Notes: a model not told the origin generated them from the letters alone. Positions 39,356-53,555 are shown, counted from the first letter of the stretch. The stretch: DNA of 64,000 nucleotides from Armatimonadota bacterium (GCA_046292385.1 JBKBRF010000017.1:1-64000), one strand, 5' to 3'. Made by a program: numbers and translations.

Positions 39356-39477
39356 CCAGACGTAGCTCAACGGCAGAGCATCAGGTAAACCCTTCGGCGG
39401 TGACTTGCCCGGAGACGGGCCGGATGTTGAAGGTTAACGGCCCTTGAGGGGTGCAGGTTCGAATCCTGCCGTCTGGT
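39356..39477 (+). ncRNA. tRNA-shaped Y-RNA-like B1 (Ro helix replaces anticodon arm)
   Basis: Acceptor ccagacg/cgtctgg, D arm tagctc-aacggca-gagc, T arm gcagg-ttcgaat-cctgc; insert cttgcccg-gaga-cgggccg. Confidence 0.8.
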
Positions 39478-39689: not shown

Positions 39690-39812
39690 TCGGACGTAGC
39701 TCAGAGGTAGAGCACCAGGAAACCCCTTCGCTGCTCACTTGCCCGGAGACGGGCCGAAAGCTGAAGGTTACCTATACCCTGGCGGCCGCGGGTTCGAGTC
39801 CCGCCGTCCGGA
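39690..39812 (+). ncRNA. tRNA-shaped Y-RNA-like B2
   Basis: Acceptor tcggacg/cgtccgg, D arm tagctc-agaggta-gagc, T arm gcggg-ttcgagt-cccgc; insert acttgcccg-gaga-cgggccg identical to B1. Confidence 0.8.
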
Positions 39813-40233: not shown

Positions 40234-41868
40234 ATGACCCAGTACCTGAAGAACGTTTTTTCCGCGCGTCAGACGCCGCAGTCGGAGCCGATCCCCGGCT
40301 CCGGGCAGGTGCCGAACAGCGCGGGCGGGTTCGCCTGGCAGGTCGACGATTGGGCCCGCCTCGATCGCTTCCTGATCCTCGGCAGCGAGGGTGGGTCGTA
40401 CTACGCCTCCGAGCGGAAGCTGACGCTGGAGAACGCGGACGCCGTGGTCCGCTGCCTGGAGGCGGACGGCGAGCGGCTGGTCCGCCGGGTGGTCGAGATC
40501 AGCGAGTCCGGCCGGGCGCCGAAGAACGACCCGGCGATCTTCGCCCTGGCGCTGGCGTGCTCCTTCGGCGACGAGCGGGCGCGCGCGGCGGCGTTCGCGG
40601 CGGTGCCGCGGGTCTGCCGGATCGGGACGCACCTGTTCCACTTCGCGGAGTTCGTAAACGGGATGCGCGGCTGGGGACGCGGGCTGCGGCGCGCCGTGGC
40701 GGCCTGGTACCAGGAGAAGCCGGTGGGGGCGCTTGCGCTGCAGGCGGTGAAGTACCAGCAGCGGGACCGGTGGAGCCACCGGGACCTGCTCCGGCTGGCG
40801 CACCCGGTGCCGGCGGACGAGGACCGCACCGCCCTCTACCGCTGGGTGACCCGCGGGTGGGAGCCGGAGCGGGCGGACCGGTTCGGCCGCGAGGGCGAGC
40901 TGGCGCTGGTCGGCGGCTTCGAGGCGGTGAAGGCGGCCGCCACGGCGGCGGAAGTGGCGGAGTGCATCCGCACCTACCGGCTGCCGCGGGAGGCGGTCCC
41001 GACGCAGTGGCTGACCGACCGCGAGGTGTGGCGGGCGCTGCTGGAGGAGATGCCGATGACCGCGCTGATCCGGAACCTGGCGACGCTGACCCGCGTGGGG
41101 CTGGTGACGCCCGGCTCCGTGGGGACCCGGAAGGTGGTGGAGCAGCTCGGCGACCGGGAGCGGCTCCGGAAGGCGCGCGTGCACCCGATCCAGGTGCTCT
41201 CCGCGCTGAAGACCTACGCCTCCGGCAAGGGCGTGCGCTCCGACCAGAGCTGGGCGCCGGTGCCGCAGGTGGTCGACGCGCTCGACGCGGCGTTCTACGC
41301 GGCGTTCCGGAACGTGGAGCCGACCGGCAAGCGGTGGCTGCTGGCGCTCGACGTCTCCGGCTCGATGGAGTGCGGAGTGATCGCCGGGTGCCCGGGGCTG
41401 ACGCCGCGGGTCGCATCCGCCGCCATGGCGCTGGTCACGGCGGCGGTGGAGAAGCAGTACACGGCGGTAGCGTTCGCCTCCGAGGGGACCTTCGGGTGCC
41501 GGAGCGGGAGCGGGCTGCGGCCCCTGGCGCTCTCCTCGCGACAGCGCCTGGACGACGTGGTGAAGCTGACGCAGGCGCTGCCGTTCGGCGGCACCGACTG
41601 CGCGCTGCCGATGCTCTACGCGCTGGAGCGGAGGCTCGAGGTCGACTGCTTCGTGGTCTACACCGACTCGGAGACGTGGGCCGGAAGCGTCCACCCGGCG
41701 CAGGCGCTGCGGCAGTACCGGGAGTGGATGGGGATCCCGGCCCGGCTGATCGTGGTCGGCATGGTCTCCAACGGGTTTAGCATCGCGGACCCGAACGACC
41801 CCGGCATGCTTGACGTGGTCGGCTTCGACACCGCCACGCCGCAGCTGATGACGGACTTCGCCCGCTGA
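40234..41868 (+). CDS. rsr: Ro60/Rsr TROVE-domain RNA-binding protein
   Basis: NSAGGF, RLDRFLILGSEGGSYY, KYQQRDRWSHRDLLRLAHP, MPMTALIRNL, vWA MIDAS DVSGSM, GGTDC, YTDSET, DVVGFD; SD ggagg. Confidence 0.96.
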   Translation: MTQYLKNVFSARQTPQSEPIPGSGQVPNSAGGFAWQVDDWARLDRFLILGSEGGSYYASERKLTLENADAVVRCLEADGERLVRRVVEISESGRAPKNDPAIFALALACSFGDERARAAAFAAVPRVCRIGTHLFHFAEFVNGMRGWGRGLRRAVAAWYQEKPVGALALQAVKYQQRDRWSHRDLLRLAHPVPADEDRTALYRWVTRGWEPERADRFGREGELALVGGFEAVKAAATAAEVAECIRTYRLPREAVPTQWLTDREVWRALLEEMPMTALIRNLATLTRVGLVTPGSVGTRKVVEQLGDRERLRKARVHPIQVLSALKTYASGKGVRSDQSWAPVPQVVDALDAAFYAAFRNVEPTGKRWLLALDVSGSMECGVIAGCPGLTPRVASAAMALVTAAVEKQYTAVAFASEGTFGCRSGSGLRPLALSSRQRLDDVVKLTQALPFGGTDCALPMLYALERRLEVDCFVVYTDSETWAGSVHPAQALRQYREWMGIPARLIVVGMVSNGFSIADPNDPGMLDVVGFDTATPQLMTDFAR

Positions 41869-41961
41869 GGGATGAAGGATGAGGGATGAAGGATGAGCTC
41901 GAGCCGGTGCTCAGCGGGCTCATCCTCTTCCTTTAGCCTTTTGACTTTAGCCTTCTGCCTT
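41866..41961. repeat. Heptamer tandem repeats (GGATGAA/GGATGAG and CTTTAGC-like) between convergent genes
   Basis: gagggatgaaggatgagggatgaaggatgag and ctttagccttttgactttagccttctgcctt. Confidence 0.6.
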
Positions 41962-42773
41962 CACATCCCCACTCCCGTGTAGTGCTTCAGGCCCCAGCGC
42001 CAGGCGAGGCGGGAGAGGAGGTAGACGGTGACTAGCCAGAAGGCGAGCATTCCGAGGCCGAAGCCGACCTCGTCCGGCGGTACCCGGCCGAGGAAGAGAT
42101 CGGCGGCGAAGGAGAGGGTGTAGCGGAACGGCAGGTAGCGCGCCGCCTCTTCCACGGCGCCGGGGAGCAGGGCGAGCGGCACCACCTCGCCCGAGAGAAA
42201 GCTCGCCGGCATGTAGTAGAAGAGGAAGAGGCTCCGCACCTCGGTGAACCGCAGCGCCAGCAGGCCGAGCGTGTAGACCAGGCAGAACGAGAGCAGGTGT
42301 CCCCCCGCCACCGCCAGCCAGAACGCCCACCCGAGGTGGTAGCCCTCCCAGCGCACGTACTGGTGGAAGACGAGCAGCCACACCCCGAAGACCGGGATGA
42401 ACAGCACCGCTCGCAGCAGCCGCCAGGAGATGCTCCCCGCGAAGTGATACGCCATGTAGCTGAACGGCCGCGTCAGCATGGCGGAGAAGCGCCCCTCCCG
42501 GATCTCGAACTCGATGTCCCACTGCGCGTGGCTGATCATCAGGTTCTTCAGGCAGAGGATCACCAGGTAGTAGGTGACCATCTGGCCGGGCGAGAGGCCC
42601 TGGATGGTGGCCCGCCCGCCGTAGCTCGCCAGCCAGACCAGCGGCAGCAGGATCGCGGGGACCGCGTCGGTCAGCATCCAGATCACCGCCTGCCCGCGGT
42701 AGGTCAGGCTATCCGCCATGTAGACGGAGAAGACGGTGAGGAACTTCCGCAGGCCGCGGGCGGGGGAGGTCAT
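41961..42773 (-). CDS. ABC-2 family (DUF990-type) permease
   Basis: EIREGRFSAMLTRP, FLSGEVVPLALLP, LPFRY. Confidence 0.88.
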   Translation of the reverse strand: MTSPARGLRKFLTVFSVYMADSLTYRGQAVIWMLTDAVPAILLPLVWLASYGGRATIQGLSPGQMVTYYLVILCLKNLMISHAQWDIEFEIREGRFSAMLTRPFSYMAYHFAGSISWRLLRAVLFIPVFGVWLLVFHQYVRWEGYHLGWAFWLAVAGGHLLSFCLVYTLGLLALRFTEVRSLFLFYYMPASFLSGEVVPLALLPGAVEEAARYLPFRYTLSFAADLFLGRVPPDEVGFGLGMLAFWLVTVYLLSRLAWRWGLKHYTGVGM

Positions 42774-42880
42774 GCGCACGATTCCGGAGCGTCTGCGGGC
42801 GGGCAGCGCACCTCGATTCTATCCCTCGGGTCCGGCCCGTTAGCGGTGCCCGTCTGAAAGGCGAGCGAGGAGAGAGCGGG

Positions 42881-43489
42881 ATGGGGTCGTGGTCGGACGA
42901 AGAGATCCTGGCGGGGATGCGCGACCCGGCCCGGCGGGAGCGCGCCTTTCGCGAGCTGCAGGGCCGCTACGTGCCGTGTCTGCTGGGGCTGCTGGCGCGG
43001 ATGTGCCATGGCGACCGCGAGACCGCGGAAGACGTGCTGGTCCGCGCGCTCTACAAGGCCTACCGCGCGCTGGCGGAAGAGGGGACTCGCTGCCGCGCCC
43101 TCTCGAGCTGGCTTTACACCGTCGCCTCCCGCACCGCGCTGGACGAGCTCGCCCGGATCCGGTCTGCGGAGCCGCCGGGAGGGACGCTCCCCCTGGCGGA
43201 AGAGCTGACGCGCCAGCCCGCGCCGGAGGCGGAGGGCCGCCTCCCTCCGGAGATCGGCCCGGCGCTGGATGCGGTGCTGGAGCGGCTCGACCGGGAGGAC
43301 GCGCGCTACCGCGTGCTGCTGGAGATGGAGCACGTGGGCGCGTGCGACCGGGGCGAGATGGCGGAGGCGACCGGTATTCCGCGCAAGCAACTCGCGCAGT
43401 ATCTGAAGCGAGCCCGGGAGCGGTTCGCGCGGCTGGCCCGGGAGTATCCGGCGCTCGCCTCGCTGGCCGCGGAAGAGGAGGGGGAGTGA
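42881..43489 (+). CDS. ECF-like RNA polymerase sigma factor
   Basis: AEDVLVRALYKAY, SSWLYTVASRTALDELAR, region 4 EMAEATGIPRKQLAQYLKRAR. Confidence 0.75.
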   Translation: MGSWSDEEILAGMRDPARRERAFRELQGRYVPCLLGLLARMCHGDRETAEDVLVRALYKAYRALAEEGTRCRALSSWLYTVASRTALDELARIRSAEPPGGTLPLAEELTRQPAPEAEGRLPPEIGPALDAVLERLDREDARYRVLLEMEHVGACDRGEMAEATGIPRKQLAQYLKRARERFARLAREYPALASLAAEEEGE

Positions 43490-44145
43490 TGGCAGAGCGA
43501 CCCGAGAGCGACGAGCGCCCGACCCCGGTGGGTGAGGAGGCCGTCGGGGCCCGGCTGGCGGGGCTGCTGCTCGTCCGCCGCGCGGAGCTTTCGCCGGAGA
43601 CGGTCGCCGCGCTGGACCGCCTCGCTCCCCCGGCAGAGCCCGGCCCGGCGCTCCGCCGCCGCCTGCGGGAGCTCTCCGCGCGAGCGGAGCTCGACCTCCG
43701 CTTCGAGCAGGAGCACGCCTCCGGGAGAAGGTCGCCCTCCCTCGGCGCCTACCTGGTCTTCCTTCGCACGCAGGCGGGGCTTACCGCGGGGGAGGCGGCG
43801 CGGAAGCTCCGGATCGACCTCCAGCTCCTCGGCGACCTGGAGCGCGACACCCTCCGGCCCGCCCAGGTCCCCGCGCGGAAGCTGGCTGCCCTGGTGCGGC
43901 GGCTGCAGGGCACGCTGGAGATGACGGAGCGCCTGCTGCAGGGCCTGGTCCGCGCCCCGCGCCAGCTCGCCCGCCCCGCGCCCGGGCGCCTCTACCGCAC
44001 CCGCCCCGGCGCCACCCCGTCTGAAGCGGCAGCCGCCTCCCGAGAGGCGCGCGGCGAGCCGGTGGAGTGGATCGACAACCCGGAGTATGCGGAAGAACTG
44101 GAAGTCGTGGAAGAGCTCGCGCGAAAGCTTCGGGAAGCGTGGTGA
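43489..44145 (+). CDS. XRE-type HTH protein
   Basis: SLGAYLVFLRTQAGLTAGEAARKLRIDLQLLGDLERD; ATG overlaps the sigma stop. Confidence 0.7.
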   Translation: MAERPESDERPTPVGEEAVGARLAGLLLVRRAELSPETVAALDRLAPPAEPGPALRRRLRELSARAELDLRFEQEHASGRRSPSLGAYLVFLRTQAGLTAGEAARKLRIDLQLLGDLERDTLRPAQVPARKLAALVRRLQGTLEMTERLLQGLVRAPRQLARPAPGRLYRTRPGATPSEAAAASREARGEPVEWIDNPEYAEELEVVEELARKLREAW

Positions 44146-44232
44146 GGGCAAGTTTGAGAGCTGAAAGAAGAGAGATGAAAGAACGGTCGGCGACGCACGA
44201 TGCCGCGACCTACTCCCCGGAGACAGACTCTT

Positions 44233-44757
44233 TCATCTCCCTTCTCTCATCTTCAAGGCTTGCACCCGCCAGTAGACGGCGGCTACGCTGACCTCGTACT
44301 TGCGGGCGAGGCGGTGCGGCTGCGGGTGCCGCTCCCAGTCCGGCGCGAAGAGGGCGCGCGGGAGCAGCAGCTCTCCCGCGAAGGCGTTCGCCTCCGCTTC
44401 GAGCAGGTCGGTCCGCTCCCACGGGTCGCCGGGCGGCTCCGGGAGCCGGTCCGCAGCTCCGCGCAGGAAGGAGAGGTCGCGCACCGGGTGCTGGTGATGG
44501 CGCAGCGCCAGGTGGCCGAGCTCGTGCGCCAGCGTGAAGCGGAGCCGCTCCCGCGGGAGCGACCGGTTCACCGCCAGGTGCGGCACCTCGCCCTCCCACC
44601 ACGATTCCCCCTCCACCTCCGGCGGGAAGTCGAGCAGCTCCACCTGCACCCCCTCCAGCACGAGCAGGTACTCCACCTCCACCGGCGCCGCGGTCACGCG
44701 GTGCCGGCGCAGGTACTTCCCGGCCATCTTCCGGGCGAAGTCGAGACGAGGACGCAT
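44233..44757 (-). CDS. ImmA/IrrE family metallo-endopeptidase
   Basis: RLRFTLAHELGH, EAEANAFAGELLLP, LARKYEVS. Confidence 0.9.
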   Translation of the reverse strand: MRPRLDFARKMAGKYLRRHRVTAAPVEVEYLLVLEGVQVELLDFPPEVEGESWWEGEVPHLAVNRSLPRERLRFTLAHELGHLALRHHQHPVRDLSFLRGAADRLPEPPGDPWERTDLLEAEANAFAGELLLPRALFAPDWERHPQPHRLARKYEVSVAAVYWRVQALKMREGR

Positions 44758-44901: not shown

Positions 44902-45011
44902 CCCACTTTAGCCTTTAGCCTTTTGACTTTTGCCTTTAGGGATGCCTCTGCACTCCGTCCTTCAACGAGCGTTAGCGTTCTCCGTCCTCTTCTCGCAGGG
45001 AGGCGGTGGCG

Positions 45012-45992
45012 ATGGCGCAGATTGTGGCGGAGGGGCTGGCGAAGACGTTCTACGTCTCGGAGCGGGAGCCGGGCTTCTGGGGGGCGGCGCGGGGGTTGGT
45101 GCGGCGGCGGCAGCGGAAGGTCTGCGCGCTGGACGGCATCTCGTTCCGGATCGAGCCGGGCGAGCTGGTGGGGTACATCGGGCCGAACGGCGCGGGGAAG
45201 TCGACCACCATCAAGGTGCTCGCCGGGATCCTGGTGCCCGACTCCGGCCGGTGCGAGGTGATGGGCCGGGTGCCCTGGCGCCAGCGGATCGAGCACGTCT
45301 CCCGGATCGGCGTCGTGTTCGGGCAGCGGACGCAGCTCTGGTGGGACCTGCCGGTGGTTGAGTCGCTCGAGCTGCTCCGGGACATCTACCGGGTGCCGCC
45401 CGCGCTCTACCGCCGCACGCTGAACGAGCTGGTGGAGCTGCTCGACCTCGCGCCGCTCCTCGATACGCCGGTGCGCCAGCTCAGCCTGGGCCAGCGGATG
45501 CGGTGCGACCTCGCCGCGGCGCTGGTCCACGCGCCCGAGCTTCTTTTCCTGGACGAGCCGACGATCGGCCTCGACGCCGTCTCCAAGCTGGCGGTGCGTG
45601 ACTTCGTCCGGCGCCTCAACCGGGAGCGGGGCGTCACGGTGCTGCTCACCACGCACGACATGGACGATATCGAGGCGCTCTGCACCCGCGTGATGGTGAT
45701 CGGGGGCGGCGCGCTGCTGACCGACGGCACGCTGGAAGAGCTCCGCGCGCGGGTGACCCGGGAGCGGTGGTTGATCGTCGACCTGGAAGATGGCTCCGGG
45801 GAGCTGCACGACCCCGCGGCGCAGGAGATGCGGCGGGAGGGCCAGCGGGTGAGCCTGCGCTTCGACCCTTCGGAGGTCGCTCCCGCCGAGCTGATCTGCC
45901 GCATCGCGGCCCGGTACCGGGTGCGGGACCTCTTCGTCCAGAACCCGCCGATCGAAGAGATCATCGCACGGCTCTACGGAGCGCCGGCGTGA
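45012..45992 (+). CDS. ABC transporter ATP-binding protein
   Basis: GPNGAGKST, VFGQRTQLWWDLP, LSLGQRMR, LFLDEPT. Confidence 0.95.
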   Translation: MAQIVAEGLAKTFYVSEREPGFWGAARGLVRRRQRKVCALDGISFRIEPGELVGYIGPNGAGKSTTIKVLAGILVPDSGRCEVMGRVPWRQRIEHVSRIGVVFGQRTQLWWDLPVVESLELLRDIYRVPPALYRRTLNELVELLDLAPLLDTPVRQLSLGQRMRCDLAAALVHAPELLFLDEPTIGLDAVSKLAVRDFVRRLNRERGVTVLLTTHDMDDIEALCTRVMVIGGGALLTDGTLEELRARVTRERWLIVDLEDGSGELHDPAAQEMRREGQRVSLRFDPSEVAPAELICRIAARYRVRDLFVQNPPIEEIIARLYGAPA

Positions 45993-46780
45993 AGGGGTAC
46001 GGGTCGGTCTTTCAGGCGCGCTTCCGCCTCCTGCTCCAGTACCGCGCCGCCGCCACGGCCGGCTTCGCCACCCAGCTCTTCTGGGGGCTGATCCGCGTCA
46101 TGATCTTCGACGCCTTCTACCGCCAGGGCGGGGGCGAGCAGCCGCTCAGCTTCCCGGAGGTGGTGACCTACGTCTGGCTGGGCCAGGCGACTCTGGCGCT
46201 GACGCTGGGCGGGGCGGAGGCGGAGATCCGGGCGATGGTCCGCTGCGGGACGGTCGCCTACGAGCTGGTGCGCCCACTCGATCTCTACGGGTTCTGGTAC
46301 TGCCGCACGTTGGCCGGGCGCGTGGCGCCGATGCTGCTGCGCGGCGTGCCGCTCTACCTGGCGGCACTGCTGTTCTTCGGGCTCGGCCCGCCTGCCGGTC
46401 CGGAGGCGGCGCTCGGGTTCGCCGCCTCTCTCGCCGCCGCGGTGCTGCTGGCCGGGGCGGTCTTCATGCTGATGAACGTCTCGCTCTTCTGGACCGTCTC
46501 CGGCGAGGGGGTGGCCCGCTTCGGCCCGGCGCTCATCTACGTCTGCTCCGGGCTGCTGGTGCCGCTGCCGCTCTTCCCGGAGTGGGCGCGCGCCGCGCTC
46601 GGCTTCCTGCCGTTCCGCGGCCTGGCGGACGTGCCGTACCGGATCTACCTGGGTCACCTGCCGGCGGAGGCGGTTCCCGGCCTGCTGCTGCACCAGCTCG
46701 CCTGGACGGCGGCCCTGGTACTCTTCGGACGGTATCTACTCGCCCGCGCGGCCCGGCGCCTGGTGGTGCAGGGAGGCTGA
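45989..46780 (+). CDS. ABC-2 family permease
   Basis: QYRAA, YVWLGQ, GTVAYELVRP, SGLLVPLPLFP, LVVQGG end. Confidence 0.9.
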   Translation: MKGYGSVFQARFRLLLQYRAAATAGFATQLFWGLIRVMIFDAFYRQGGGEQPLSFPEVVTYVWLGQATLALTLGGAEAEIRAMVRCGTVAYELVRPLDLYGFWYCRTLAGRVAPMLLRGVPLYLAALLFFGLGPPAGPEAALGFAASLAAAVLLAGAVFMLMNVSLFWTVSGEGVARFGPALIYVCSGLLVPLPLFPEWARAALGFLPFRGLADVPYRIYLGHLPAEAVPGLLLHQLAWTAALVLFGRYLLARAARRLVVQGG

Positions 46781-46810
46781 GCGGTGCTGAAGCTCGGCAT
46801 CCGTGGGGCC

Positions 46811-46931
46811 GCGAGGCATTGAGATACCTCGCTGGACGGCCTGCGGCCACGCGTCCTCCGGACGCCCGAATCGAGCCCTCTCAGTCCGCGAAGGCGGACT
46901 TCGCGCCGTCGTTGCCGCGGTTTCAACCGCC
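46811..46931 (-). repeat. REP-like composite element inside the ABC operon
   Basis: Inverted homolog of 28815-28958. Confidence 0.8.
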
Positions 46932-46954
46932 CGGTCTTCCATCAAACAACCGTC

Positions 46955-47758
46955 ATGCTCAACTCCCTTCACCTCTACCTCCGCTACCTCGCTCTCTCCG
47001 TCCGGGGGCAGATGCAGTACCGCGCCTCCTTCCTGATGTTGACGGCGGGACACTTCCTGCTCACCGGAACGGAGTTCCTGGGCGTCTGGGCGTTGATGGA
47101 GCGCTTCGGCGGGCTCCGGGGCTGGCGGCTGCCGGAGGTGGCGGTGCTGTACGGCGCGATCAACGTCTCGTTCGCGCTGGCGGAGGGGGTGGGGCGGGGA
47201 TTCGACATCTTTTCTCAGCAGGTAAAGTCGGGCGACTTCGACCGGCTCCTGCTGCGGCCGCGGAGCACCGCGTTCCAGGTGGCGGCTTCGGAGGCGCAGC
47301 TCTTCCGGGTGGGGCGGCTGGCACAGGGGGCGCTGATCCTGGCGTGGGGGCTCGCGTCGGCGCCGATCGACTGGAGCCCCGCCGCGGCGCTGCTGGTGCC
47401 GGCGATGGTCCTCGGCGGCGCCTGCCTCTTCTACGGGCTCTTCGTGCTCCAGGCGACGCTGGCGTTCTGGACCGTCGATTCGCTGGAGGTCTTCAACACG
47501 GTCACCTATGGCGGCATCGAGACGGCGCAGTACCCGCTGGAGATCTACCGGCCCTGGTTCCGCCGCTTCTTCACCGTGGTGGTGCCGCTCGCCTGTGCCA
47601 ACTACCTGCCGGTCCACGCGCTGCTCGGCCGCCCGGATCCGTTCGGAGCTCCGCCGCTCCTCCAGTGGGCCGCGCCCGCGGGCGGGCTCCTGTTCCTGCT
47701 CGTATGCCTCCGGGTCTGGAAAACCGGAGAGCGCCGCTATTGCTCCACCGGAAGCTGA
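46955..47758 (+). CDS. ABC-2 family permease
   Basis: QMQYRASF, GDFDRLLLRP, QYPLEIY, YCSTGS end. Confidence 0.9.
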   Translation: MLNSLHLYLRYLALSVRGQMQYRASFLMLTAGHFLLTGTEFLGVWALMERFGGLRGWRLPEVAVLYGAINVSFALAEGVGRGFDIFSQQVKSGDFDRLLLRPRSTAFQVAASEAQLFRVGRLAQGALILAWGLASAPIDWSPAAALLVPAMVLGGACLFYGLFVLQATLAFWTVDSLEVFNTVTYGGIETAQYPLEIYRPWFRRFFTVVVPLACANYLPVHALLGRPDPFGAPPLLQWAAPAGGLLFLLVCLRVWKTGERRYCSTGS

Positions 47759-47935
47759 CCCGGCGCGCCGCGTGTGATTAAGATTCGTGCGTTGAATGTT
47801 TGCTGCACCAAGGGAACGCGGTGGGGGGGAGGCGAACGTGGGAAGGGCGGGGCACGCCGAGGCGAAGAGCTCCCCGCCCGCGCACGATCCGGAGCCGGCG
47901 ACCCGCGGGAGCCGCAGCAGAGCCCGAATTGACGA

Positions 47936-50053
47936 ATGGTTGAGACGAACCCGCAAACGCTGGCGCTGGTAAGAATGGCCGTGGCCCGTGTCGCCTCCGA
48001 TCCGGAGGACGAGCAGCGCTATCTGGAGCTGAACTGGGCGCTGGACCGGGCGGTGGAGCGCGATTTCCGCTACCGGGAGCTGCTGGCGATCTTCGAGGAA
48101 GGCGCCGCCACCGCCGCGGAGGATGTCTCCTGGGCCTGGTGGCTCGCCGCCGGCCTGGGGGGGAACCTGACCGGGGACTCGGAGCGGGCCACCCACCTGC
48201 TGGAGCAGGCGCGGCGGGAGCTGGAGGCGCAGGGCCGCGACCACACCGCCATCGGCTCCTTCACCTGCGGAGAGCTGGCCCGGGCCTACTACCACTGCGG
48301 CGGCGCCCCGGCGGAGGAGGCGGCCACCCGCGGCCTGCAGCTCGCCCGCTCCGCCAACTCGCCCCTGGCGGAGGGCTACGCCCATCACTACCTGGGGCTA
48401 ATCCTGGTCCGGCGGCGGGAGTACGACTACGCCCGGCGCCACATCCTGGCCGCGCGCGAGCTGTTCGAGCGGATGAAGCAGCGCCACGGCCGCGCGCGCG
48501 TGCTCGATTCTCTGGCCAGCCTGGAGATGGACCTGGGGCACTACGAAGTCGCCCGCCAGCTCCTGGAGGAGAGCCTGGGGGTGAAGAGCGAGTTCCGCGA
48601 CCTCCGCGGCCAGGCGCTCACCTGCTCCAACCTGGGGCGGCTCTACACCGGCCTGGCGGACTACTCCCAGGCGCTCCACTACCTGGACCGCGCCCGGGAG
48701 CTGAGCACCCGCGTGGGAGACGAGCGGACCGCCACTCTGCTGCGGATCCGCCTGGGCGAGCTGCACCTGCGGCACAACCACGCGGAGCTGGCGCGAGTGG
48801 AGCTGGAAGCCGCCTTCCGCATGGCGCGAGACCGCCACGACGAGATGCTGGTGGCGACCGCCTGCTTCGCCCTGGCGGAGGCGGAGCGCCGCCTGGGGCA
48901 CTATCCCGACGCGCTGCACTCGATCCGGCTGGCGGAGCGGTTCTTCGGGAAGAGCGACGACGTGGTGATGCGGGACCGCGTGGCGCTGCGCCGCGCCCTG
49001 CTGGAGGGGGTCGACTTCGAATCGTCACGGGTCGAGGGTCCGCTCAACCGGCTGCGGGCCTGCGACGCCTCCGGCGCGCTGGCCGACGCGCTCTTCGAAG
49101 CGGCCAGCTTCTTTCACGAGCGAGGGCGCGTGCAGCAGGTGGCGGCGCTCTACGCCGAAGCGCTCGACGCCGCCGAGCCGGCGCAGGCGATCCAGCTTGC
49201 GGAGCAGATGCGCAGCCGGGCCGAAAGCGTGGAGGGGCGCGCGTGGGTCGACGCGATGCTGAACGTCAAGCACCACAAAGACGAGCTGGAGCAGGCGTAC
49301 GGGGAGCTGCGCCGCGCCGAATCGCTGCGGGACGCGCTGACGCAGATGATCGTTCACGACCTCAAGAATCCGCTCACCGCGATCACTCCCTGGCTCCAGA
49401 CGATCCAGATGGGCGGTCTCTCGGAAGACGAGACCGAGTCGGTGCTGCAGACGGTGATCGATGAGTGCGACTACCTGCTCCGCACCATCGAGGACCTGAA
49501 CGACGTCGGGAAGATGCAGCACGAGCGCACGCTCGACCTCTCCCTGGAGCGGCTCGACCTGACCGAGCTGATGAACGAAGTGGCCCGCCGGCTGCAGACC
49601 CGCGCCCGCGATGCCGGCATGACGATCCGGTGCGACTGCCCCCGGGCCTCGCTGCTGCCGGTCCGAGGGGATCGCTCCAAGCTCCGCCGCGTGCTGGAGA
49701 ATCTGGTCGCCAACGCGATCAAGTACGGCCGGCCCGCCGAGGGCTCCGGCCTGCCGGCGGAGGTGGAGATCCGGGCGCGCGTGGAGCCGCCGCCGCCGGA
49801 CGGGGGCTCTCCCTCCGTACGGGTCGAGGTGTGCGACTTCGGTCCCGGGATCCCGCTGGCGGAGGCGGAGCGAGTCTTCGAGCCGTACTACCAGGCCGAA
49901 GCCGGCCGCAAGCGCAAGGCCGGGGTCGGCCTGGGCCTCGCCTTCTCCCGCATGGTGGTCCAGGCGCACGGCGGCGCCCTCTGGACCGAGCCGAATCCTC
50001 ACGGCGGCAGCGTCTTCGCCTTCCGCCTCCCCGCCGAGGACCTCTCGAGCTGA
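47936..50053 (+). CDS. Cytoplasmic TPR-containing sensor histidine kinase
   Basis: TPR-like helices, no obvious TM; HDLKNPL H-box, ENLVANAIKY, DFGPGI, GVGLGL. Confidence 0.9.
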   Translation: MVETNPQTLALVRMAVARVASDPEDEQRYLELNWALDRAVERDFRYRELLAIFEEGAATAAEDVSWAWWLAAGLGGNLTGDSERATHLLEQARRELEAQGRDHTAIGSFTCGELARAYYHCGGAPAEEAATRGLQLARSANSPLAEGYAHHYLGLILVRRREYDYARRHILAARELFERMKQRHGRARVLDSLASLEMDLGHYEVARQLLEESLGVKSEFRDLRGQALTCSNLGRLYTGLADYSQALHYLDRARELSTRVGDERTATLLRIRLGELHLRHNHAELARVELEAAFRMARDRHDEMLVATACFALAEAERRLGHYPDALHSIRLAERFFGKSDDVVMRDRVALRRALLEGVDFESSRVEGPLNRLRACDASGALADALFEAASFFHERGRVQQVAALYAEALDAAEPAQAIQLAEQMRSRAESVEGRAWVDAMLNVKHHKDELEQAYGELRRAESLRDALTQMIVHDLKNPLTAITPWLQTIQMGGLSEDETESVLQTVIDECDYLLRTIEDLNDVGKMQHERTLDLSLERLDLTELMNEVARRLQTRARDAGMTIRCDCPRASLLPVRGDRSKLRRVLENLVANAIKYGRPAEGSGLPAEVEIRARVEPPPPDGGSPSVRVEVCDFGPGIPLAEAERVFEPYYQAEAGRKRKAGVGLGLAFSRMVVQAHGGALWTEPNPHGGSVFAFRLPAEDLSS

Positions 50054-50174
50054 TTCGCGCCCCGCTGCGCGCCTCGCGAGCTCCGCACCCGTCCGCCGCC
50101 CCGGCCCGGCTTCCCCGGCCCGGACCGCCAACCGAGCAGCCGCCTGTAAAAAAAGCGCTCCTCATTCAATCGAT

Positions 50175-50190
50175 TGGCACGGCTCTTGCT
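50175..50190 (+). promoter_or_regulatory. Sigma54 (-24/-12) promoter
   Basis: TGGCACG-gctc-TTGCT matches the consensus TGGCACG-N4-TTGCW. Confidence 0.75.
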
Positions 50191-50514
50191 TACTCATTCA
50201 TCCGGTTGACAGAATGGCCCATTCGGTGGACGAGCAGGCAGGCCTGCGGATCGCGCCGAAAACGCCAGAATGAAGTAGGAGCGCACGATTGGCCGGTCGG
50301 ACAGCGAGAACTGTCCGGTTGACCAAACGGCCGGCCCCACGCAGAGGGTAACCTGAACGGGTAGCCCACCCTCCGTGAGCTGCGAAGCTTGAAGCGATTT
50401 GGGAGCCCCGATTCCGGAGCTCCCGGCGAGCGAGTGCCCGTAGTACGGCGCGCGCCCCGCACTCTGTGAACGAGCCGCCGGCGGAGACCCTGCCGGCCAA
50501 GAAATGGTGAGAAG

Positions 50515-52533
50515 ATGCATCGATCCCTGAGCATCCTGGGGGTTGGGCTGGGGCTGACGGCACTGGCGGCGGGAACCTCCGGTGTCCGAGCGGGAGCTTC
50601 CGCTTCGGTCACTCTCCCGCCGGCGCTGAAGGCGAAGCTGGCGTCCAACCTTTACCGCGCCGAGGCGCGGGCGGGACGGCGAACCTACATTGTTCAGTTC
50701 CGCGACGCGAAGCGCGGCCTGGAGCTGGTACGACGGAGCGGGGCTACCGTGGAGCACGCGTTCAGCGTGCTGCCGATGGCGAGCGTGACCGCGGCTCCCG
50801 ACGAGCTGAACCGGCTCCTGGCTTCCTCCGAGGTGACGAACGTCAGCTCGGACGCCACCGTGAAGAAGTCGATGGAGTTCGCGATCCCCGCCGTGCGGGC
50901 CGACATGCCGCACAAGGTCGGCTTGAAGGGCAGCGGCGTCACGGTGGCAGTGATCGATAGCGGCATCGCCAATCACTGGGACATCCGCGAGGATCGCTCC
51001 GGGCAGCGCCAGAGCCGGGTGCTCGCCGGAGTGGACTTTGTCAAAGGTGGGTCCAGCACGGCGATGGGCAACGACGAGTGCGGTCACGGCACGATGGTTG
51101 CCGGGATCGCGTGCGGCGACGCCACCTCCAGCACCATGAACACCGATCGTGCCTGGAACACCCGGCACTTCTTCGGCGTGGCGCCGGCTACCAGCATCCT
51201 CAACCTGCGCGTGCTGGACAAGCACGGGCAGGGCACGGTGACCAACGCCATCAAGGCGCTGGAGTGGTGTATCCAGAACAAGACGAAGTACAACATCCGC
51301 GTCGTCAACATGTCGCTCGGCCATCCGCCGTTCCAGAGCTATCTGGAAGACCCGCTCTGCCAGATGACGGAGCAGGCGTGGAAGGCGGGCCTGGTGGTGG
51401 TGTGCGCGGCGGGGAACCGCGGCCGGGCGGTGGCGAACGACCAGAACGGCGGTGCCCGGTACGGCACGATCAACAGCCCCGGCAATAGCCCGTACGTGAT
51501 CACGGTGGGCGCCACGCGGGACAGCGGGACGGTCACCACGGATGACGACTGGGTCGCATCCTACAGCAGCCGCGGGCCGACGCGCATCGACCACATCGTG
51601 AAGCCGGACCTGGTGGCGCCCGGCAACCGGATCATCAGCCTGCGGCACCCCGGCAGCGAGTTGGAGCGCGTGGCAGGCGGCACCAACCTGATCGAGAACT
51701 GGTACTACTGGCAGCGGAAGAACGACAAGGACGTGAACGGCACGTCCAAGGACTACTTCCACCTGTCCGGGTCCAGCATGGCGGCGGCGGTGGTTTCCGG
51801 CGCGGCCGCGCTGATGGTCGGCCTCGATCCGTCGCTGACGCCGGACACGGTGAAGGCGCGCCTGATGCTTACGGCCCGCAGCGAGTGGCGCGCGGACGGC
51901 CAGTCGCCGGACATCTTCAGCCGCGGCGCGGGGCTGCTCGACGTAGACCGTGCCCTCCGCTGCCGGGTGGTGGCGACGCGGCCGGCCCTCTCTCCTTACG
52001 TCTCGCGGCACGAGAGCACGCTGACGTTCTACTACGGGCGAGGCCTGGGTGGAGAGGAGACGTTCTGGAGCGGCCTGGGTGTCCAGGCGCACCAGGCGCT
52101 CTGGAGCGACGACACGCCGAAGTCGTCCACCGGCACCTACCCCGGCTCGGGCGGGACCAGCACCTATCCGGATATGTCGTACTACGATCCCAAGAAGTAC
52201 ACGTACAATCCGGACGACTACAAGTCGCAGGCGCTCTGGAGCGATCAGGCGCTCTGGAGCGACGACGCCCCGCGTGCCCAGGCGGACACGGCGCAGGCGC
52301 TCTGGAGTGACCAGGCGCTCTGGTCCGACGGTCCTGCCGCGCAGGCGGAAGCGCAGGCGTTGTGGAGTGATCAGGCGCTCTGGTCGGACAGCCCGGCCGA
52401 CGCCATGCAAGAGCTCCAGAACTGGGCGCAGCAGGCGCTCTGGTCGGACGATAAACCTCGCAGCGATAGCGGGGAGCTCACCCAAGCACTCTGGTCGGAC
52501 GTGTTCCGAGTGTCCGTTCTGGGGGACGAATGA
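50515..52533 (+). CDS. Secreted S8 subtilase with nine C-terminal QALWSD repeats
   Basis: Signal peptide, propeptide; VAVIDSG, GHGTMVAG, AAGN, LSGSSMAA. Confidence 0.92.
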   Translation: MHRSLSILGVGLGLTALAAGTSGVRAGASASVTLPPALKAKLASNLYRAEARAGRRTYIVQFRDAKRGLELVRRSGATVEHAFSVLPMASVTAAPDELNRLLASSEVTNVSSDATVKKSMEFAIPAVRADMPHKVGLKGSGVTVAVIDSGIANHWDIREDRSGQRQSRVLAGVDFVKGGSSTAMGNDECGHGTMVAGIACGDATSSTMNTDRAWNTRHFFGVAPATSILNLRVLDKHGQGTVTNAIKALEWCIQNKTKYNIRVVNMSLGHPPFQSYLEDPLCQMTEQAWKAGLVVVCAAGNRGRAVANDQNGGARYGTINSPGNSPYVITVGATRDSGTVTTDDDWVASYSSRGPTRIDHIVKPDLVAPGNRIISLRHPGSELERVAGGTNLIENWYYWQRKNDKDVNGTSKDYFHLSGSSMAAAVVSGAAALMVGLDPSLTPDTVKARLMLTARSEWRADGQSPDIFSRGAGLLDVDRALRCRVVATRPALSPYVSRHESTLTFYYGRGLGGEETFWSGLGVQAHQALWSDDTPKSSTGTYPGSGGTSTYPDMSYYDPKKYTYNPDDYKSQALWSDQALWSDDAPRAQADTAQALWSDQALWSDGPAAQAEAQALWSDQALWSDSPADAMQELQNWAQQALWSDDKPRSDSGELTQALWSDVFRVSVLGDE

Positions 52534-52586
52534 AAATGCGAAAACGAGTTGCATCCCATCGTGGCGTCCGCTCGACACTACTTCCG

Positions 52587-52715
52587 ATGCTGAAGTATCT
52601 GGTCGTAGGACTCCTCCTCGCCGGCGTGGCCCTCGCTCCGGTCACGGCCCACGCGGCTGGCTGCGCCGGGGACTCGCCGAAGCCTCAAAAAACACAGGTT
52701 CTCTGGAGCGACTAA
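52587..52715 (+). CDS. Small secreted peptide ending QVLWSD
   Basis: 42 aa MLKYLVVGLLLAGVALAPVTAHA-AGCAGDSPKPQKTQVLWSD; alternative start 52530. Confidence 0.7.
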   Translation: MLKYLVVGLLLAGVALAPVTAHAAGCAGDSPKPQKTQVLWSD

Positions 52716-52743
52716 CCGCTTTCAGGGTTCCGGAACGCGCACC

Positions 52744-52779
52744 GGACAGCCCGGCCTCCACCTGGAGGCCGGGCTGTCC
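52744..52779. terminator. Strong hairpin between convergent genes
   Basis: ggacagcccggcctcca/tggaggccgggctgtcc. Confidence 0.6.
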
Positions 52780-52871
52780 TGCGTACGGCTGCGGAGCTCA
52801 GTGGGAGAGTGAGAGAGTGGGATCCGGGGCCGGCCGTGTGGCGCCGGTCTCCCGGATCCCCGGCGCACCGT

Positions 52872-53555
52872 TTAGAGCTGTTTGAGGTGGAAGTCTTTGA
52901 ACTGCACCTTCATCGGCGGGCCCTGGTGGAGCTGCAGCGCGAGGATGCCCTCCGCCGCGCGGCCGTCGGTATCCTCGTCCGTCGTCTCGGCCGTCACCAC
53001 GCCGTTGATCTCGTGGCGGAGCTGGTTGCCGCGAGCGACGAGGTGGTACTCGTTCCACTCCCCTTTCCGCACCGCCGCCTTGATCTTCTCCGGGTCTCCC
53101 ACGGTGCCCACCACCTTCGGCTTGCCGTCTTCTCCGATGACGGTCCGCTGTCCCGGCTCGGCCAGGACGCCGCGTCCGCGCTCCTCGTAGATCAGGCCGT
53201 TCCAGCGGTCGCCGGCTTCGAAGTCGGCCTGGTAGCCTGCCACCACCCAGTTGCCCAGGTGCTTGCTGCGGTACTGGATGCCGGAGTTGCCGCCTTCGAT
53301 GCGGAACTTCACCCGGAGGTCGAAGTCCTTCAGCGTGCCGCCCTTCCAGATCAGGAAGGTGTTCTGCGGCGTGGGGCGGTCCGGCGTGGTGGTGCCGGTC
53401 AGGGCGCCGTCCTGCACGGACCAGAACTTCGGATCACCGTCCCAGCCGGTCAGGTCCTTCCCGTTGAAGAGGCTGCGGGAATCGGGCTGGGCGGCAGCCA
53501 CGGTCGCGGCCGCGAGGGCGACCAGCGCGGTAAGGGAAATCAGGCGATGAGCCAT
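52872..53555 (-). CDS. DUF1080 (3-keto-disaccharide hydrolase) family protein
   Basis: LFNGKDLTGW, NSGIQYRS, GYQADF, GEWNEY, LQLHQG. Confidence 0.9.
   Translation of the reverse strand: MAHRLISLTALVALAAATVAAAQPDSRSLFNGKDLTGWDGDPKFWSVQDGALTGTTTPDRPTPQNTFLIWKGGTLKDFDLRVKFRIEGGNSGIQYRSKHLGNWVVAGYQADFEAGDRWNGLIYEERGRGVLAEPGQRTVIGEDGKPKVVGTVGDPEKIKAAVRKGEWNEYHLVARGNQLRHEINGVVTAETTDEDTDGRAAEGILALQLHQGPPMKVQFKDFHLKQL

Follow-up and report, generated by a model that had tools for sequence, protein, structure and literature searches.

Why should the same tryptophan-containing hexapeptide be written nine times into the tail of an exported protease and once more, with a single residue changed, at the very end of the small gene that follows? 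The question is raised by a locus of an Armatimonadota bacterium (GCA_046292385.1, JBKBRF010000017.1:1-64000; this whole stretch of 64,000 nucleotides is hereafter the window), in which positions 47,936 to 52,779 carry a soluble histidine kinase with tetratricopeptide repeats (TPR), an S8 subtilase and a small open reading frame (ORF), all on the plus strand. An initial annotation of this DNA proposed that the protease releases the peptides from its tail and from the small precursor, and that the kinase senses them. Comparing related loci and genomes, we find that the Trp-unit tail is a trait of the S8 family as a whole, that single units also stand free of the protease, that the usual partner of the protease is a membrane sensor with a MASE9-like domain, and that synteny with the kinase is found in one clade. 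Our preferred reading, to which we assign a probability of about 0.45, is that a Trp-hexapeptide signalling system is widespread and that the locus is one of its cassettes; that the unit serves as a functional short ligand of some kind seems likely. What appears to be new is the clade linked to the kinase, in which the peptide ORF is conserved, together with the immunoglobulin (Ig)-like carriers of the unit and the bracketing of the unit's ends. A literature search found no paper on a protease-peptide-sensor system of this kind, most subscription journals lying outside its coverage.

Results and discussion

The hexapeptide unit in the protease tail

The S8 subtilase (50515..52533, plus strand, 672 aa) is an exported protein made up of a signal peptide, a propeptide-like domain, a catalytic domain and a tail modelled with low confidence. 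Its catalytic residues are intact (triad D148/H191/S421, oxyanion N301), and the AlphaFold model has a fold like that of subtilisin and Tk-SP, the best match being ProN-Tk-SP (3afg). Within the tail, residues 522-672 have a predicted local distance difference test score (pLDDT) below 50 and are not packed onto the catalytic domain with any confidence. The protein thus resembles the AprX-like/Tk-SP-type S8A subtilases in its propeptide, catalytic domain and intact triad, and its homologues are annotated AprX, but where these have a folded accessory domain it ends in a tail of Trp repeats.

As the initial annotation stated, the tail holds nine copies of QALWSD (52093..52500, plus strand), which start at 52093, 52228, 52246, 52294, 52312, 52354, 52372, 52432 and 52483 and form three tandem pairs and three singles with variable spacers. 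Any 6-mer was repeated even twice in only 48 of 20,000 shuffles of the tail, so the nine copies are not due to chance. The varied synonymous codons that had been reported for the units hold for Ser, which is written in four ways (agc three times, agt twice, tcc once, tcg three times), whereas the other five codons show little variation. The protein closes with a family signature that ends in G-[D/E] (52501..52533, plus strand).

Such tails are the rule in the family. At least three Trp units occur in 113 of the 120 S8 homologues listed, with the consensus x-phi-phi-W-[G/S/A/T]-x, and a G[DE]x0-3 C-terminal end is present in 217 of 257 tailed S8s. In 184 tails from the fetched loci, a median of 65% of the tail is accounted for by its commonest unit, which is one of 115 different alleles. 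No constant cleavage motif precedes the unit in the irregular spacers, and both spacers and copy number vary freely among homologues. One could see in the repeat an element for assembly or surface binding, such as an aromatic zipper, a fibre or a small folded domain, which the small genes would seed or cap, and the tail of locus L058, with about 30 near-perfect copies, would suit such a role. Yet copy number and spacers would hardly be so free in that case, alleles differ from locus to locus, single units sit at the ends of other proteins, and genes of 7-11 codons cannot form such a domain alone; we regard this explanation as quite improbable.

Self-cleavage was also considered from the side of the enzyme. 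The residue after the oxyanion Asn is linked to P1 preference, and a basic residue at this position (R302 here) goes with an acidic sixth unit residue (23/77 vs 4/180). We rejected this covariation as a sign of self-cleavage; it is mostly ancestry, because the sister rows of 12 of the 17 basic-residue clades are likewise acidic at unit position six.

Free-standing units

The peptide ORF (52530..52715, plus strand, 61 aa) overlaps the S8 stop codon by 4 nt. It begins with a signal-peptide-like segment, whose hydrophobic core spans residues 24-38 (mean Kyte-Doolittle (KD) hydropathy 2.59), and continues for 19 residues past an A-H-A site to end in QVLWSD-stop, again as first annotated. Since Q-x-L-W-S-D-stop occurs just this once in 14.1 million genome positions, the ending is not a chance one. 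The annotation's expectation that the ORF would be conserved was borne out: counterparts are found at L044, L046 and L077, and thus at 4/4 kinase-adjacent loci, the window included. They read Q-[VIM]-L-W-[STG]-D, directly followed by a stop codon in three (L046 runs off its contig), with a hydrophobic leader in two of the four and none in L044 and L077. More generally, synteny of tailed S8s with small downstream motif genes is seen in a minority: ORFs ending in motif-stop lie within 450 nt 3' of 7/100 tailed S8s (window included), compared with 0/100 on reverse strands and 1/332 next to other genes.

Elsewhere such mini-genes can be reduced to little more than the unit. At L310, two ORFs consist of a signal peptide and SAVWGS-stop only; L078 and L079 have four leaderless 11-codon ORFs each, ending R[VI]IWGD-stop, and a 51-aa ORF at L080 contains four units. 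The R[VI]IWGD arrays (L078:4155-4451, L079:7683-8027) are followed by a stand-alone response regulator. In the source genome, a 9-codon ORF ending QALWTD-stop (G000:C46:31033-31062, minus strand; L210), accompanied by an inverted repeat and a sequence resembling a ribosome site, both recognized by eye, diverges from a polysaccharide export operon near a REC-HD-GYP gene.

The unit is also found at the front of exported Ig-like proteins that match no Pfam family. One on contig C38 (L013:8562-8942) begins with HFVWGE after its signal site, beside an S8 with an HILWGE tail, and another (L046:2448-2837), directly 3' of the kinase, begins with QALWSD beside a QALWSD tail; the unit thus resembles the neighbouring tail in 2/2 carriers of known context. 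Ten other Ig-like matches of at most 126 aa were found among the 150 listed, of which eight start with a unit directly after an A-x-A site, one ends in QALWAD-stop and one seems truncated. The ESM Atlas offered only generic Ig-like and TPR look-alikes, below 0.9. Because the signal-peptidase site of the carriers and the stop codon of the mini-genes bracket the same six residues, the hexapeptide itself is probably the functional unit. The ends of the putative ligand are therefore given naturally, and a synthetic hexapeptide could be tested directly on the two candidate receptors named below, the MASE9-like sensors and the TPR kinase.

Pairing each free unit with its own tail gave a better match than permuting the pairs (0/20,000 permutations, 15 pairs), and at position 2 a free C-terminal unit is usually unlike the tail beside it (QV, QI or QM vs QA). 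A general rule of Ala in the tail and a bulky residue in the free peptide was abandoned, as it is reversed at L310; a fixed frameshift or read-through fusing S8 and mini-gene was likewise rejected, since relative frames differ among loci. A genome-wide search of 401 genomes for the motif-stop pattern gave 25 matches vs 14 in the control, mostly chance outside the family, and we draw no support from it.

The unit might instead work on or with the protease rather than as a diffusible signal. It could be a motif for docking or inhibition, or a tethered ligand, through which S8 is recruited to a membrane sensor or has its maturation regulated; mini-genes and Ig-like carriers would then be competitors or inhibitors. 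Irregular spacers lacking a constant cleavage motif agree with this, a difference at position 2 would befit a tuned competitor, the carriers present the unit on a folded scaffold, and the conserved G[DE] end points to a further element for docking. The L310 genes, however, are easier to read as a signal, the unpacked tail of the S8 model lends docking no help, and at the C21 locus (below), which has no S8, a sensor and an exporter are accompanied by motif peptides, so that a role confined to the protease seems unlikely to us.

Membrane sensors as the usual partners

Paralogues of the S8 gene on contigs C30, C38 and C44 are each followed by a membrane sensor; all three sensors have the same N-terminal domain, joined to either a kinase or an HD-GYP output. 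With our own profile for this MASE9-like domain, a sensor gene lies within 3 kb in 26/40 and 26/46 S8s that have 3 kb of DNA on both sides. The source genome encodes five such sensors, two of them without an S8; the same profile finds no MASE9-like gene in the window between 42,000 and 60,000. Galperin and Chou (10.1101/2021.11.05.467447) describe MASE9 (PF20972) as a promiscuous sensor that probably binds ligand within the membrane, and in the text available to us the paper names no ligand and contains neither of the words 'protease' and 'peptidase'. Here, the sensors that follow paralogous S8s join a MASE9-like domain to an HD-GYP, GAF-GGDEF or kinase output; the window shares with these loci the Trp-unit tail and its G[DE] end, but not the adjacent sensor gene.

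Contig C21 (G000:C21:97047-103018; L246) carries a divergent MASE9-like HD-GYP sensor facing two peptide genes, with NAIWED inside a 38-aa precursor and MHVIWDD, and an RRE-M50-HlyD gene, with no S8 in the 14 kb examined. The motif and the sensor thus go together even without the protease. The same S8-free arrangement is seen at L247 and L257. On contig C27 an unpaired MASE9-like HD-GYP-GAF-GGDEF sensor (G000:C27:64117-67131; L245) recurs in four family genomes (L245, L253, L254, L260), each time accompanied by the same small divergent gene, and may be a receptor acting in trans. Long arrays of the SM[IL]WTD type (L258:1-99 and L259:2614-2913), cut by contig ends, stand before MASE9-like sensors in two related genomes (G003 and G002, respectively).

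In the system that we favour, the hexapeptide x-phi-phi-W-[G/S/A/T]-x would be a short exported ligand, supplied in many copies by the unfolded S8 tail and in single copies by the mini-genes. After export, signal peptidase, and probably S8 itself, would expose or release the hexapeptide. Its readers would most likely be MASE9-like membrane sensors coupled to turnover of cyclic di-GMP (c-di-GMP) or to kinases; at the window's locus reading could occur in trans, for example through the C27 sensor. Such a system would bring cell-to-cell peptide signalling into the c-di-GMP and kinase pathways of abundant, little-studied soil phyla.

The TPR histidine kinase

What, then, of the kinase (47936..50053, plus strand, 705 aa)? 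It was correctly described as a TPR protein lacking transmembrane segments: Pfam finds TPR_12, HisKA and HATPase_c, none of its 19-residue segments exceeds a KD of 1.08, and the TPR superhelix spans residues 1-450, approximately, ahead of the phospho-His at 474. No response regulator gene is adjacent, making it an orphan. The likeness to Rap that had been claimed is real in fold: the AlphaFold model (pLDDT 89) finds as its best match among 48,161 chains the Rap of phi105 with bound peptide (Z 30.0, root mean square deviation 3.8, 338 residues aligned), and Rap pLS20, RapI, RapH, NprR and AimR are also listed. By sequence, the identity to Rap is 14%, and of the RRNPPA receptors only RapI is matched (E 0.005), well behind LGN/Pins (1e-15 to 1e-7).

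The kinase is single-copy in 7/7 family genomes, with a weak match in 1/394 others. It lies directly 5' of the S8 cassette in the source genome, G004 and G005, and not in G001, G002, G003 or G006; a further case, the metagenome contig L077, was found through its S8. The synteny of kinase and S8 therefore stands in that the gene order recurs in three other lineages, and falls short in that it holds in only 3/7 family genomes. The four kinase-adjacent S8s, which are at most 66% identical to the window's, all belong to a single clade of eight rows (support 92). As they share this clade while their flanking genes differ, the link between kinase and S8 appears to be old and has probably been selected.

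It may be that in this clade the kinase has taken over as receptor, binding Q-phi-LW[ST]D peptides in its TPR groove in the manner of Phr and Rap and so setting its own activity, perhaps with feedback on a sigma-54 promoter. The peptides would either come back into the cell through an Opp-type permease or be produced there from mini-genes that have no leader. Such a role of the kinase would be consistent with the single clade, with a peptide ORF at 4/4 loci and a MASE9-like gene at 0/4 within the DNA fetched, with the Rap-peptide complex as best fold match, and with the leaderless ORFs of L044 and L077. Residues E113, Y152 and D191, at putative groove-facing helix-A positions by the TPR consensus, do not vary among 41 sequences, and the source genome has elsewhere five genes for OppA-family binding proteins (SBP_bac_5). 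Against it, the kinase is beside S8 in fewer than half of the family genomes although all have it, and non-RRNPP TPR proteins come close in fold (APPBP2 Z 25.5, MalT 25.4, LGN 24.7). The usual Asn of the groove helix is present in 1/6 repeats checked, a sigma-54 site separates the kinase from S8, and the absence of a sensor gene counts for less where the DNA 3' of the cassette is as short as at L046 (176 nt) and L077 (1.9 kb). Moreover, G006 (94% complete) retains the kinase with 112/117 conserved positions, and no tailed S8 was found there; this genome does not decide between receptors, because it also keeps two MASE9-like sensors. Taken together, these comparisons support the initial proposal in part, and we hold the kinase as receptor, which it included, to be doubtful. 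Its fullest form, in which a Rap-like soluble kinase replaced the membrane sensor as reader in one Armatimonadota clade, with the protease as multi-copy pheromone precursor, the mini-genes as a position-2 variant (agonist or antagonist) and a loop through a single NtrC-type activator on the cassette's sigma-54 promoter, is unlikely. If a replacement did take place, the kinase would be an intracellular peptide sensor outside Firmicutes, perhaps joining a Rap-like sensor to a histidine kinase, and the same class of peptides would be the missing MASE9 ligand. In the signalling system that we prefer, the kinase is a long-standing neighbour, probably kept by selection; as a speculation, it would more probably regulate the cassette, perhaps via the NtrC-type activator, than be the receptor of the peptide.

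Control by sigma-54 and expression

A perfect match to the sigma-54 (-24/-12) consensus lies 5' of S8 (50174..50190, plus strand), and from this site and the gene layout we infer that sigma-54 drives S8 and the mini-gene. The 7-Mb genome has five perfect sites, three of which lie ahead of genes of the system: this S8, its paralogue on C38 and the C21 sensor. A site with one mismatch lies 5' of the S8 orthologue in G005, and G001 has one before an S8 and one before a C21-type sensor. One rpoN and one NtrC-type activator are encoded in the source genome, the latter on C52 with no kinase gene beside it. A link between kinase and activator has no distributional support, as rpoN (148/201 genomes) does not track the kinase (8/401).

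A rhizosphere RNA library yields contigs over 50235-51901 and 52260-52740, the latter of which runs ungapped across the mini-gene with 19 differences; near-identical pieces also occur in three DNA sequencing runs on soil or roots that belong to other studies. As contigs from one study, which cannot prove transcription or a start site, these are a weak hint of transcription. A perfect 16-bp hairpin between convergent genes (52744..52779; z -5.92, 0/200 shuffles) is a probable terminator.

Points against a signalling system

Several observations weigh against the signalling system proposed here, in which cleavage, binding and signalling are themselves proposals. Most tailed S8s have no mini-gene; in a second S8 set motif-stop ORFs follow 3/77 compared with 1/77 on reverse strands, and of these three one duplicates L044 and one is probably chance. 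Several mini-genes lack a signal peptide, which a model of extracellular peptides has to explain. The Ig-like search profile itself held the motif, biasing the share of unit-first homologues, and three other stand-alone Ig-like ORFs, which come from genomes, do not carry the unit. The permutation test of free units treats kin as independent, with 7 of its 15 pairs individually unremarkable, and the S8 structure was modelled on a 13-sequence alignment only. For the sensors, the best Pfam MASE9 match stays below the cut-off (23 vs 24.3 bits), the adjacency counts again take kin as independent and include a few duplicates and tandem S8s, and about 40% of S8s, the window's among them, have no MASE9-like neighbour. 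Sigma-54 sites precede a small share of S8s (5/89, compared with 2/367 other genes), no such site was found at L046 or L077, and rpoN was not found in G004.

Comparison with known peptide systems

The locus recalls the RRNPPA systems (Rap-Phr, NprR-NprX, AimR-AimP), described from Firmicutes in the portions of PMC9765709 and PMC11343458 available to us, in its small exported propeptide with the candidate signal at the C-terminus, its repeated 6-mer copies and its soluble TPR superhelix; maturation of Phr by a subtilisin-type protease appears in the latter source as the title of a reference. It differs in that the kinase has an N-terminal TPR domain followed by HisKA-HATPase, whereas RRNPPA receptors have an N-terminal HTH or Rap helix bundle and a C-terminal TPR. 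The propeptide gene is usually immediately up- or downstream of the receptor gene (PMC9765709, as far as available); here it lies 2.5 kb from the kinase, with the S8 gene between them at all four loci. The protease itself, moreover, carries most peptide copies, and the homologues are from Armatimonadota and Acidobacteriota rather than Firmicutes.

A Trp third from the C-terminus of a small precursor, as in ComX (PMC13731918, available part), and a histidine kinase nearby also recall ComQXPA. Yet the kinase here is soluble with no adjacent regulator, while ComP is a membrane kinase with ComA in its operon, and the Trp motif is found here at internal and N-terminal positions too. The parallel with ComX drawn in the initial annotation breaks down for want of ComQ: three PF00348 genes are present (C1, C5, C13), none on the window's contig C17 and none beside a ComX-like ORF. 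A ComQ-like pair has been reported from Chloroflexi, with no mention of MASE or Armatimonadota in the accessible part of the report (10.64898/2026.08.29.745113). Because domain and gene order differ from RRNPPA and ComQ is missing, the system, though likened to Phr and ComX signalling, would stand outside both.

Neighbouring genes

An Rfam scan of 47,700-53,000 in the window found no riboswitch or other RNA, and the same was true of six related loci. Upstream, three ABC-2 membrane genes and one ATPase gene (41961-42779 and 45006-47758) form an operon that ends 178 nt 5' of the kinase and is not kept beside it in related loci. Genes for an ECF-like sigma factor, an HTH protein and a convergent IrrE/M78 peptidase occupy 42881-44757. 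Further upstream, two 122-nt tRNA-like RNAs (39356-39477 and 39690-39812, plus strand; Rfam tRNA 50 bits, no call by ARAGORN) lie directly 5' of a TROVE/Ro60 gene (40234-41868); they are probably Y-RNA-like partners.

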